Assembly (NCBI GenBank): GCA_938083505.1
Contig: CALKCF010000002.1
Coordinates: 96,001 to 160,000 of the forward strand
Direction: 5' to 3'
DNA: 64,000 nucleotides
Source: an uncultured archaeon
GTDB taxonomy: Archaea; Thermoproteota; Nitrososphaeria_A; Caldarchaeales; Wolframiiraptoraceae
Shown here: positions 4,439 to 50,919 of the stretch, in pieces
Layout: every line of letters starts with the position of its first letter
Numbering within the stretch: position 1 is the first letter of the stretch
Position numbers and translations under genes: made by a program
Notes under the pieces: model-generated
What the model was told of the DNA's origin: nothing
The model's input: only the letters and a program-made list of their open reading frames with translations
The model's database searches: none

Positions 4439-4542
4439 GCGGGGGTTGCCAAGCCTGGTCAACGGCGCAGGGCTCAGATTCTTTATAATGATGGGAGACC
4501 CTGTCCCGTAGGGGTTCGTGGGTTCAAATCCCACCCCCCGCA
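4439..4542 (+). tRNA. tRNA-Leu (CAG) with 19-nt anticodon-loop intron (about 4479-4497)
   Basis: Acceptor GCGGGGG/CCCCCGC-A, anticodon stem CAGGG/CCCTG, long variable arm, GGTTCAAATCC T-arm; BHB central helix CTCA/TGGG. Confidence 0.9.
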
Positions 4543-21854: not shown

Positions 21855-21957
21855 AATATGTATTACTATGGTGCTGTGTTTTTGAGCTTTGTCCTTGATA
21901 GTTCATACATTACTCGGATGATAAGTTCTTTGATGAGGTAGTCCTTGTTGAGTATAG

Positions 21958-22073
21958 CGCCGGGGCTGGGATTTGAACCCAGGCGACCCTCGTCGGGTCA
22001 GCGGCTTTCTTGACCAGCTTGTCCTCTTACAAGATCTCGAGGCCGCCCCTATACCTGGCTAAGGGACCCCGGC
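21958..22073 (-). tRNA. tRNA-Ser (CGA) with about 29-nt intron (about 22007-22035)
   Basis: Acceptor GCCGGGG/CCCCGGC-G, anticodon stem GCGGC/GCCGC, CT-CGA, long variable arm GACCC/GGGTC, TTCAAAT T-loop. Confidence 0.88.
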
Positions 22074-49506: not shown

Positions 49507-49684
49507 TCGCATCTACGCTATTTTTCATTGTTGAACGTCGCTTGCTCACATTATCAACTATTCCGTAATTGGTAGAGAATATAGAATATACTACGACATA
49601 ATAAGGTTCACGCGCAGACTCTTCCATCAGCATCCTTAATGATATTAATAACTACCTCAACCCGGCCCCGGGTTCAAAAAATCT

Positions 49685-49791
49685 TGGCGCCCTTCGGCGG
49701 GTGGGGTTTTCAACCCTCCCATGGCCGGGATTTGAACCCGGGTCCGGCGGGCGACAGCCGCCGATACTAGACCGGACTATACTACCAGGGC
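49685..49791 (-). tRNA. tRNA-Asp (GTC) with encoded CCA and a 29-nt BHB intron at 68/69 (49693-49721)
   Basis: GCCCTGG 5' acceptor, GGCGG-CT-GTC-GC-CCGCC anticodon arm, CCGGG-TTCAAAT-CCCGG; removing the intron restores CCAGGGC-G-CCA. Confidence 0.92.
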
Positions 49792-49895
49792 TCCATCTGA
49801 ATATGGTAAAAAGAACCTCTATAAAGCAATTCTTAAAGTTTTCTAGAAAATTAAGGTAGCAAGGATTTTATCCCAGCATAAAAGGTTTTGGCTAC

Positions 49896-50844: not shown

Positions 50845-50919
50845 TAGCGGGGGATGGATTTGAACCATCGATCTCCGGGTTATGAGCCCGGCGGGTTATC
50901 CTGGCTACCCTACCCCGCT
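50845..50919 (-). tRNA. Initiator tRNA-Met (CAT)
   Basis: A1-U72 pair, three G-C pairs in anticodon stem (CCGGG-CT-CAT-AA-CCCGG), TTCAAAT T-loop; no intron. Confidence 0.95.

Follow-up and report, generated by a model that had tools for sequence, protein, structure and literature searches.

A bulge-helix-bulge intron at position 68/69 of the tRNA-Asp(GUC) gene of Candidatus Terraquivivens and a putative antisense trailer clamp

In a hot-spring archaeon of the genus Candidatus Terraquivivens, the tRNA-Asp(GUC) gene is interrupted five bases short of the end of the mature body. The interrupting sequence is, with high probability, a real intron of the bulge-helix-bulge (BHB) type, located at position 68/69, i.e. 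within the 3' strand of the acceptor stem. The gene lies at 49685-49791 on the minus strand of the window, as the whole 64,000-nt stretch of DNA analysed is called here, in an assembly of 1.15 Mb (10 contigs, 98.5% complete). From a reading of its sequence, it is composed of a 5' exon of 70 nt and a 3' exon of 8 nt, separated by a 29-nt insert (Table 1). The favored reading, which is given a probability of about 0.8, is that of a functional single-copy tRNA-Asp(GUC) gene with a genuine BHB intron at 68/69, whose transcript would be spliced before the T-arm and the acceptor stem form, with the help of a clamp located in the trailer. The sequence makes it very probable that the intron is spliced. 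Complementarity and modelled folds make it somewhat probable that the trailer acts as a folding clamp.

Table 1. Features of the tRNA-Asp(GUC) locus, in window coordinates
Feature	Position	Strand	Basis or remark
Candidate archaeal promoter, TATA-like box TTTATA	49820..49825	-	About 31 nt upstream of tRNA position 1; inferred from sequence
5' exon, positions 1-68, 70 nt	49722..49791	-	Aligns with the orthologues of 40 related genomes
Putative clamp target: variable region, T-stem 5' strand and first T-loop bases (GGACCCGGGTTCAAA)	49731..49745	-	Complementarity
Exon bases C61-C66: outer helix (C61, C62) and 5' CGGC strand	49724..49729	-	Must quit the T-stem/acceptor stem
29-nt BHB intron at 68/69	49693..49721	-	Kept in 7/7 genomes of the genus
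Intron: third base of bulge 1	49721	-	
Intron: inner hairpin	49699-49720	-	
Intron: GCCG, 3' strand of the central helix	49695-49698	-	
Intron: first two bases of bulge 2	49693-49694	-	
3' exon GGGCG+CCA (G69-C72, discriminator G73, encoded CCA)	49685..49692	-	Sequence and call on the spliced form
T6 run directly after CCA, possible terminator	49676..49681	-	Last three T shared with the trailer clamp
Putative trailer clamp TTTGAACCCGGGGCC	49664..49678	-	Antisense to G44-A59, 14/15 pairs; intergenic DNA

The 5' exon reads ...CCCGGCCA at its 3' end, and the intron begins with TGGGAGGG and finishes with GCCGAA. Once the insert is removed, ARAGORN recognizes a perfect cloverleaf with a 7-bp acceptor stem, G73 and CCA, and the spliced tRNA is the same in form as its intronless orthologues. 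The junction corresponds to Sprinzl position 68/69 because the tRNA has two extra bases in the D-loop and lacks position 47. Upstream of the gene, the spacing of the TATA-like box fits that of an archaeal TATA box and would leave a leader of a few nucleotides.

The BHB motif is formed around a central helix of 4 bp, in which C63-C66 (CGGC) pair with the GCCG located near the 3' end of the insert. This helix is flanked by two bulges of 3 nt each, C67-A68/U (CA/U) and A-A/G69 (AA/G), the slash marking the cut. The outer helix between C61-C62 and G70-G71 is just 2 bp long, both pairs being invariant, and a GC-rich hairpin lies inside the core. At this site a BHB detector found 4/4 central pairs, at least three inner pairs and two outer pairs. 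Cleavage after the second base of each bulge releases an intron of exactly 29 nt. A cut one base earlier (67/68) gives an identical product here but not in two sister species, in which the 3' bulge is AG/G, and 68/69 is therefore the consistent site. Relaxed-BHB alternatives, namely 5'-side deletions and a U-rich acceptor strand matching CCAUGGG, were rejected: they have no inner helix, are unconserved and leave the tRNA without G73 and CCA. The sequence features expected of a BHB intron are all present, namely two 3-nt bulges 4 bp apart, flanking helices and a canonical tRNA upon removal. The sequence and the ARAGORN call on the spliced form thus agree with the sequence-only reading as to the tRNA-Asp gene, its BHB and where this is cut, the intron length of 29 nt and the repair of the acceptor stem. 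That reading had also given the 3' exon a length of 8 nt, which holds for GGGCG+CCA but probably not for the primary transcript, expected to be longer because a conserved trailer element lies downstream. Strict BHB motifs occur in this genome at a frequency of about 1.5e-4 per position and length (41,974 candidates, both strands, 120 lengths). Given this background, the presence of a BHB at the single place where its removal restores a tRNA is not due to chance.

The fold of the intron was also examined by covariation in 32 distinct sequences with introns of 18-32 nt, a set that was gathered with a pattern fixing the exon sequence and in which related genomes are not independent. Over these 32 sequences the central helix is paired in 127/128 cells, and the first three inner pairs hold in 96/96 cells, alternating between G-C and A-U. 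Pairing reaches 96.9% of cells over the whole alignment, and all five pairs of the inner helix were changed on both sides (49 cells). The observed score was matched by none of 500 shuffles, and slid registers pair in 29-55% of cells. Unaided, RNAalifold recovers the same helix-bulge-helix core with the outer helix one base out of register, a shift that is attributable to the GGG run. The register of the outer helix can slip to a 2-nt bulge.

The intron is located at the same place in 7/7 Terraquivivens genomes, i.e. the present one and six others. Among them it varies by substitutions and by length changes of 1-2 nt in the inner hairpin, and the fold is preserved in all. An uninterrupted 3' end of the CCAGGGCG type is present in 34 genomes belonging to other genera of this family and order. 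One genome per prokaryotic species (GTDB) was scanned with a pattern running from the T-loop through A68, followed by 11-41 nt and GGGCG. Among the 50 loci returned, 33 are tRNA-Asp(GUC) genes with a strict BHB at 68/69 and a further one has a single mismatch, the other 16 being different genes or intronless genes that happen to have GGGCG downstream. The true cases belong to Terraquivivens, Bathyarchaeia, Hadarchaeota (Hadesarchaea) and Nitrososphaerales. A covariance model, R1, was built from the intron alignment and run on sampled genomes, where it identified carriers in 8/41 Hadarchaeota, 7/41 Bathyarchaeia and 3/41 Nitrososphaerales. In an even sample of 151 genomes of Thermoproteota, the phylum of the window, the model detected no carrier outside Terraquivivens. 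Weak R1 matches (25-32 bits) correspond to intronless tRNA-Asp genes, including the single outside match of the Thermoproteota sample (genome G048). The lineage samples indicate that the intron is patchy yet recurrent, always in tRNA-Asp and always at 68/69.

Several of the tRNA-Asp loci collected have peculiarities of their own. In Ca. Terraquivivens ruidianensis (L036, G005, minus strand) the gene carries a second intron, an 18-nt BHB at position 5/6, about 60 nt upstream of the anticodon. Both strands of the acceptor stem are therein interrupted, the removal of both introns gives a perfect tRNA, and the leader holds the 5' acceptor strand (GCCCTGG) a second time. The gene of Ca. Terraquivivens tikiterensis (L037, G006, minus strand) has about 30 extra nucleotides in the D-loop, between two copies of GTATAG and with no strict BHB, and a leader copy of its 5' end, GCCCTGGTGGTAT, lies upstream. 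In the complete 1.5-Mb genome G048, from the same phylum, the tRNA-Asp gene (L119, 1417-1570) is intronless at 68/69 and has an intron near the anticodon. About 25 nt past its CCA, the sequence GCCGAAGGGC equals the 3' end of the 68/69 intron followed by the start of the 3' exon and may be a relic or a chance match.

The position of the intron creates a conflict between two folds. Bases C61-C66 constitute the 3' strand of the T-stem and the first base of the acceptor stem, and they are also required by the BHB. The BHB had been proposed from the sequence to be incompatible with the T-stem, and folding without the trailer bears this out. For a transcript ending at CCA, the minimum free energy structure retains the T-hairpin together with a pseudo-acceptor stem and lacks the BHB, and its z-score is unremarkable. 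Without the trailer, the BHB fold lies above this minimum by about 9 kcal/mol at 37 C and by about 4.5 kcal/mol at 70-85 C.

The sequence downstream of the gene could relieve this conflict. The trailer was scored as the longest gapless complement, G-U pairs allowed, between positions 41-60 and the 40 nt downstream of the gene. A complement of 10-19 nt is reached by 18 of the 35 distinct intron-bearing genes (shuffle p<0.01 for 16 of these), compared with one of 31 intronless tRNA-Asp genes, which attains 10 nt (p<0.01 for none). In about half of the intron-bearing genes the complement is just short or interrupted, and the versions of Hadarchaeum and Nitrososphaerales are interrupted or shifted. 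The differences between trailers are mostly compatible with G-U wobble, and in one Hadarchaeota genome (L103) a compensatory change places U49 opposite A where the others have C49 opposite G. In Terraquivivens the 12-nt core TTTGAACCCGGG is invariant in 7/7 genomes, and the T-run ahead of it is broken in 2/7 (TTCTTTT, TTCTTT). A run of T5-T7 separates the 3' end from the clamp in 5/7 species of the genus and could end transcription ahead of the clamp. When the trailer is included, the best folds contain a trailer/T-arm helix, within which lie the inner hairpin, the 5' bulge and the central helix. The penalty for the strict BHB in Terraquivivens at 37 C then drops to 3-5.6 kcal/mol, compared with about 8.6 kcal/mol otherwise, and in Hadarchaeota it is 0.8-1.7 kcal/mol at 75 C. 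Even with the trailer, the strict BHB is not the minimum free energy structure in Terraquivivens and stands 2-5 kcal/mol above the minimum.

Two other loci concern the trailer. Of the intronless genes just one, from a Hadesarchaea genome (L072), is followed by a 10-nt complement to the T-arm region, and this complement might be a clamp left over after intron loss. In Bathyarchaeota BA2 (L092, minus strand) the DNA 5' of G44 does not resemble the body of a tRNA, and the complement of the trailer extends 19 nt into this DNA. This locus may be the 3' part of a split tRNA-Asp or the carrier of a long intron.

The following maturation pathway can be proposed. Transcription would begin a few bases upstream of G1. 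The trailer would pair with the 5' half of the T-arm, which is left unpaired in the BHB fold, and the resulting helix would both block the T-hairpin and stack as a long helix under the 2-bp outer helix. An (alpha-beta)2 endonuclease would then cleave A68/U and A/G69, after the second base of the bulges, and RtcB would ligate A68 to G69. The completed acceptor stem and the T-arm would out-compete the trailer helix, allowing the cloverleaf to form, after which RNase P and 3' processing enzymes would mature the ends and the trailer would be discarded. In 4/7 Terraquivivens species the encoded CCA is replaced by CTA, and CCA would presumably be added to these tRNAs.

The splicing enzymes of this pathway are encoded in the genome. 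Two endonuclease subunits are present, a catalytic alpha subunit of 189 aa (contig C3:217365-217934) and a beta subunit of 183 aa (contig C2:44923-45474). The closest match of the alpha subunit is chain B of the Aeropyrum pernix heterotetramer (3p1z_B, E 2e-50). In the Crenarchaea-specific loop, Lys44, a residue needed for broad substrate specificity (Hirata et al., PMC3241643), has K45 of this subunit as its aligned counterpart. The host is thus predicted from sequence to encode an endonuclease of the two-subunit (alpha-beta)2 type that possesses the lysine of the specificity loop. The ligase RtcB is also encoded (578 bits).

Non-canonical introns are frequent in this genome. They were identified in the anticodon stems of the Lys, Asn, Ile, Arg and Gly tRNAs, at 9/10 in tRNA-His, in the D-loop of tRNA-Gln and near 59/60 in tRNA-Phe, which indicates that the cell plainly handles such substrates. 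The tRNA-Asp intron is the only one in the 3' strand of an acceptor stem among the solved genes of the genome, a statement limited to these genes because six multi-intron tRNA regions yielded no solution at a depth of two introns. Several ARAGORN intron calls in this genome are wrong. Within the window, the gene at 4439-4542 (plus strand), labelled Ser(cga) by ARAGORN, is a tRNA-Leu(CAG) with a 19-nt canonical intron. A tRNA-like gene at 21957-22073 (minus strand; Rfam, 38.9 bits) gives no solution with up to two BHB introns and probably contains three introns or relaxed motifs. One kilobase upstream of the tRNA-Asp gene and on the same strand, a tRNA(CAT) at 50845-50919 (minus strand) resembles an initiator tRNA, with an A1-U72 end pair and a G-C-rich anticodon stem. 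Elsewhere in the assembly, an identical intron-bearing tRNA-Lys(UUU) is found at two contig ends (G000 C1:10-107 and C3:221443-221540), and the two copies are probably one locus split by assembly.

Alternative explanations were considered for the gene as a whole. The gene could be a disrupted pseudogene or bear an insertion scar, for example an att duplication left by a mobile element, the Asp codons being read by another tRNA that escaped detection. The 3' ends of tRNA genes are common integration sites, and the Rfam tRNA model missed the gene when the window was scanned, although it gave 41 bits in the whole-genome search. However, the sequence-only reading had raised the question of whether this is the only tRNA-Asp, and whole-genome tRNA searches confirmed that it is: no second tRNA with a GUC anticodon exists in the 98.5% complete genome. 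A 'tRNA-Asp(atc)' called by ARAGORN on another contig was rejected, as it resolves into a tRNA-Gln(CUG) with two introns. Moreover, the insert is just 29 nt long, lies within a precise BHB and has been kept with compensatory changes in seven species and three other lineages. Nothing is repeated, the neighbours are metabolic genes and no integrase lies nearby. A pseudogene or scar is accordingly considered very improbable. Still less credible is that the RNA works unspliced, in the 75-nt form with a CCAUGGG 3' strand and an A discriminator that ARAGORN does report for the unspliced sequence. Such a tRNA would suffer from a G1.G72 clash and a C4.U69 mismatch and would be deprived of G73 and CCA, whereas every intronless orthologue ends in CC(A/U/C/G)GGGC-G or an equivalent perfect stem. 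The sequence-only reading had also pointed out that the intron interrupts the 3' segment which integrative elements usually take as attB, and the intron might protect such a site.

Another explanation accepts the intron and questions the trailer. The antisense element would be no splicing helper but the partner of a terminator-like hairpin, the relic of an inverted duplication, or some other signal, such as one blocking premature 3' processing. The T-run ahead of the element in most Terraquivivens species and the modest thermodynamic gain brought by the trailer are both consistent with this explanation. The trailers of Bathyarchaeia, moreover, look homologous past the paired part (L063 and L092 share TCTAATAGG), so that common descent explains part of the association between trailer and intron. 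On the other hand, the element is present in four separate lineages and is specific to intron-bearing genes, its 12-nt core stays invariant in seven species despite the broken T-run, and substitutions keep the pairing. As for the terminator-like version, archaeal termination is not known to need hairpins. A non-helper role is thus regarded as unlikely, and the folding clamp is the preferred role of the trailer. A broader proposal goes beyond the clamp itself. The 68/69 intron and the antisense trailer would make up a co-inherited cassette, in which the trailer would serve as a cis-acting RNA chaperone unfolding the T-arm. This cassette would either be ancient, being shared by Thermoproteota and Hadarchaeota with many losses, or have moved between phyla. 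The odds of this proposal are judged to be even.

If the favored reading is correct, an essential tRNA can accommodate an intron that leaves just five bases of the mature body downstream, at a place where the splicing motif is incompatible with the tRNA fold. A simple and testable solution to this conflict would be a throw-away trailer keeping the precursor in a form that can be cleaved. The order of maturation would be fixed, splicing coming first, followed by refolding and trimming of the ends, and the gene would lend itself to clean in vitro work on site recognition by broad-specificity endonucleases. In the usual description, non-canonical tRNA introns are recent and mobile (PMC4390854), and the recurrence across distant lineages bears on whether they are indeed so or can be old. 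If true, an ancient or phylum-crossing cassette would contradict the description of these introns as recent, lineage-local insertions. Experiments would be best directed at this recurrence and at the trailer linked to the intron. On the practical side, since standard tools miss or mis-call the gene (a truncated acceptor in ARAGORN, and the Rfam model as above), genomes may wrongly appear to have no tRNA-Asp.

The tRNA-Asp intron belongs to a known class, the protein-spliced non-canonical BHB introns, and it is its position, a rare site, that is unusual. Sites of non-canonical archaeal tRNA introns are described as running from 20/21 to 59/60, with 3/4 called 'an extreme case' (PMC4090602). The 'aminoacyl stem' is named among the intron sites, with no positions, in two papers citing Marck and Grosjean 2003 (PMC3241643, PMC3488258). 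The literature searched, which did not extend to the catalogues of Marck and Grosjean 2003 and Sugahara 2008, yielded no text naming position 68/69, an intron in the 3' strand of the acceptor stem or a trailer helper, and the text supplements of tRNAscan-SE 2.0 give no intron positions.

The closest relatives of the tRNA-Asp intron are the non-canonical BHB introns of Thermoproteales, other Crenarchaeota, Thaumarchaeota and Aigarchaeota (PMC4090602). They share with it the two 3-nt bulges 4 bp apart, the association with a broad-specificity (alpha-beta)2 endonuclease and RtcB, and a host rich in introns at odd positions. In both cases the BHB borrows exon bases, and the cloverleaf consequently cannot form first. 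The tRNA-Asp intron differs from them by its position at 68/69 in the 3' acceptor strand and by its recurrence, always in this tRNA and at this site, across several classes and phyla. The 3/4 intron of Thermoproteales, as far as it is described by PMC4090602 after Sugahara 2008, likewise lies inside the acceptor stem near an end of the tRNA, a location which makes one exon very short, but on the opposite strand and at the opposite end. In the split and permuted tRNA genes of Nanoarchaeum, Caldivirga, Desulfurococcales and Thermofilum (PMC4033280, PMC3218864), a helix adjoining the BHB is built from non-tRNA sequence, and this helper is discarded after splicing, as is proposed for the tRNA-Asp trailer. 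In contrast with them, tRNA-Asp is encoded as one continuous transcript, and its 3' trailer would pair with an exon, namely the 5' half of the T-arm, instead of with the leader of a partner. Finally, the rRNA processing stems with flanking inverted repeats (PMC7714728) resemble the proposed tRNA-Asp precursor in that a long helix made by a flank presents a BHB to the same endonuclease. Both strands of this helix are flanks in the rRNA stems, whereas in tRNA-Asp one strand would be part of the mature tRNA and would have to refold into the T-arm.
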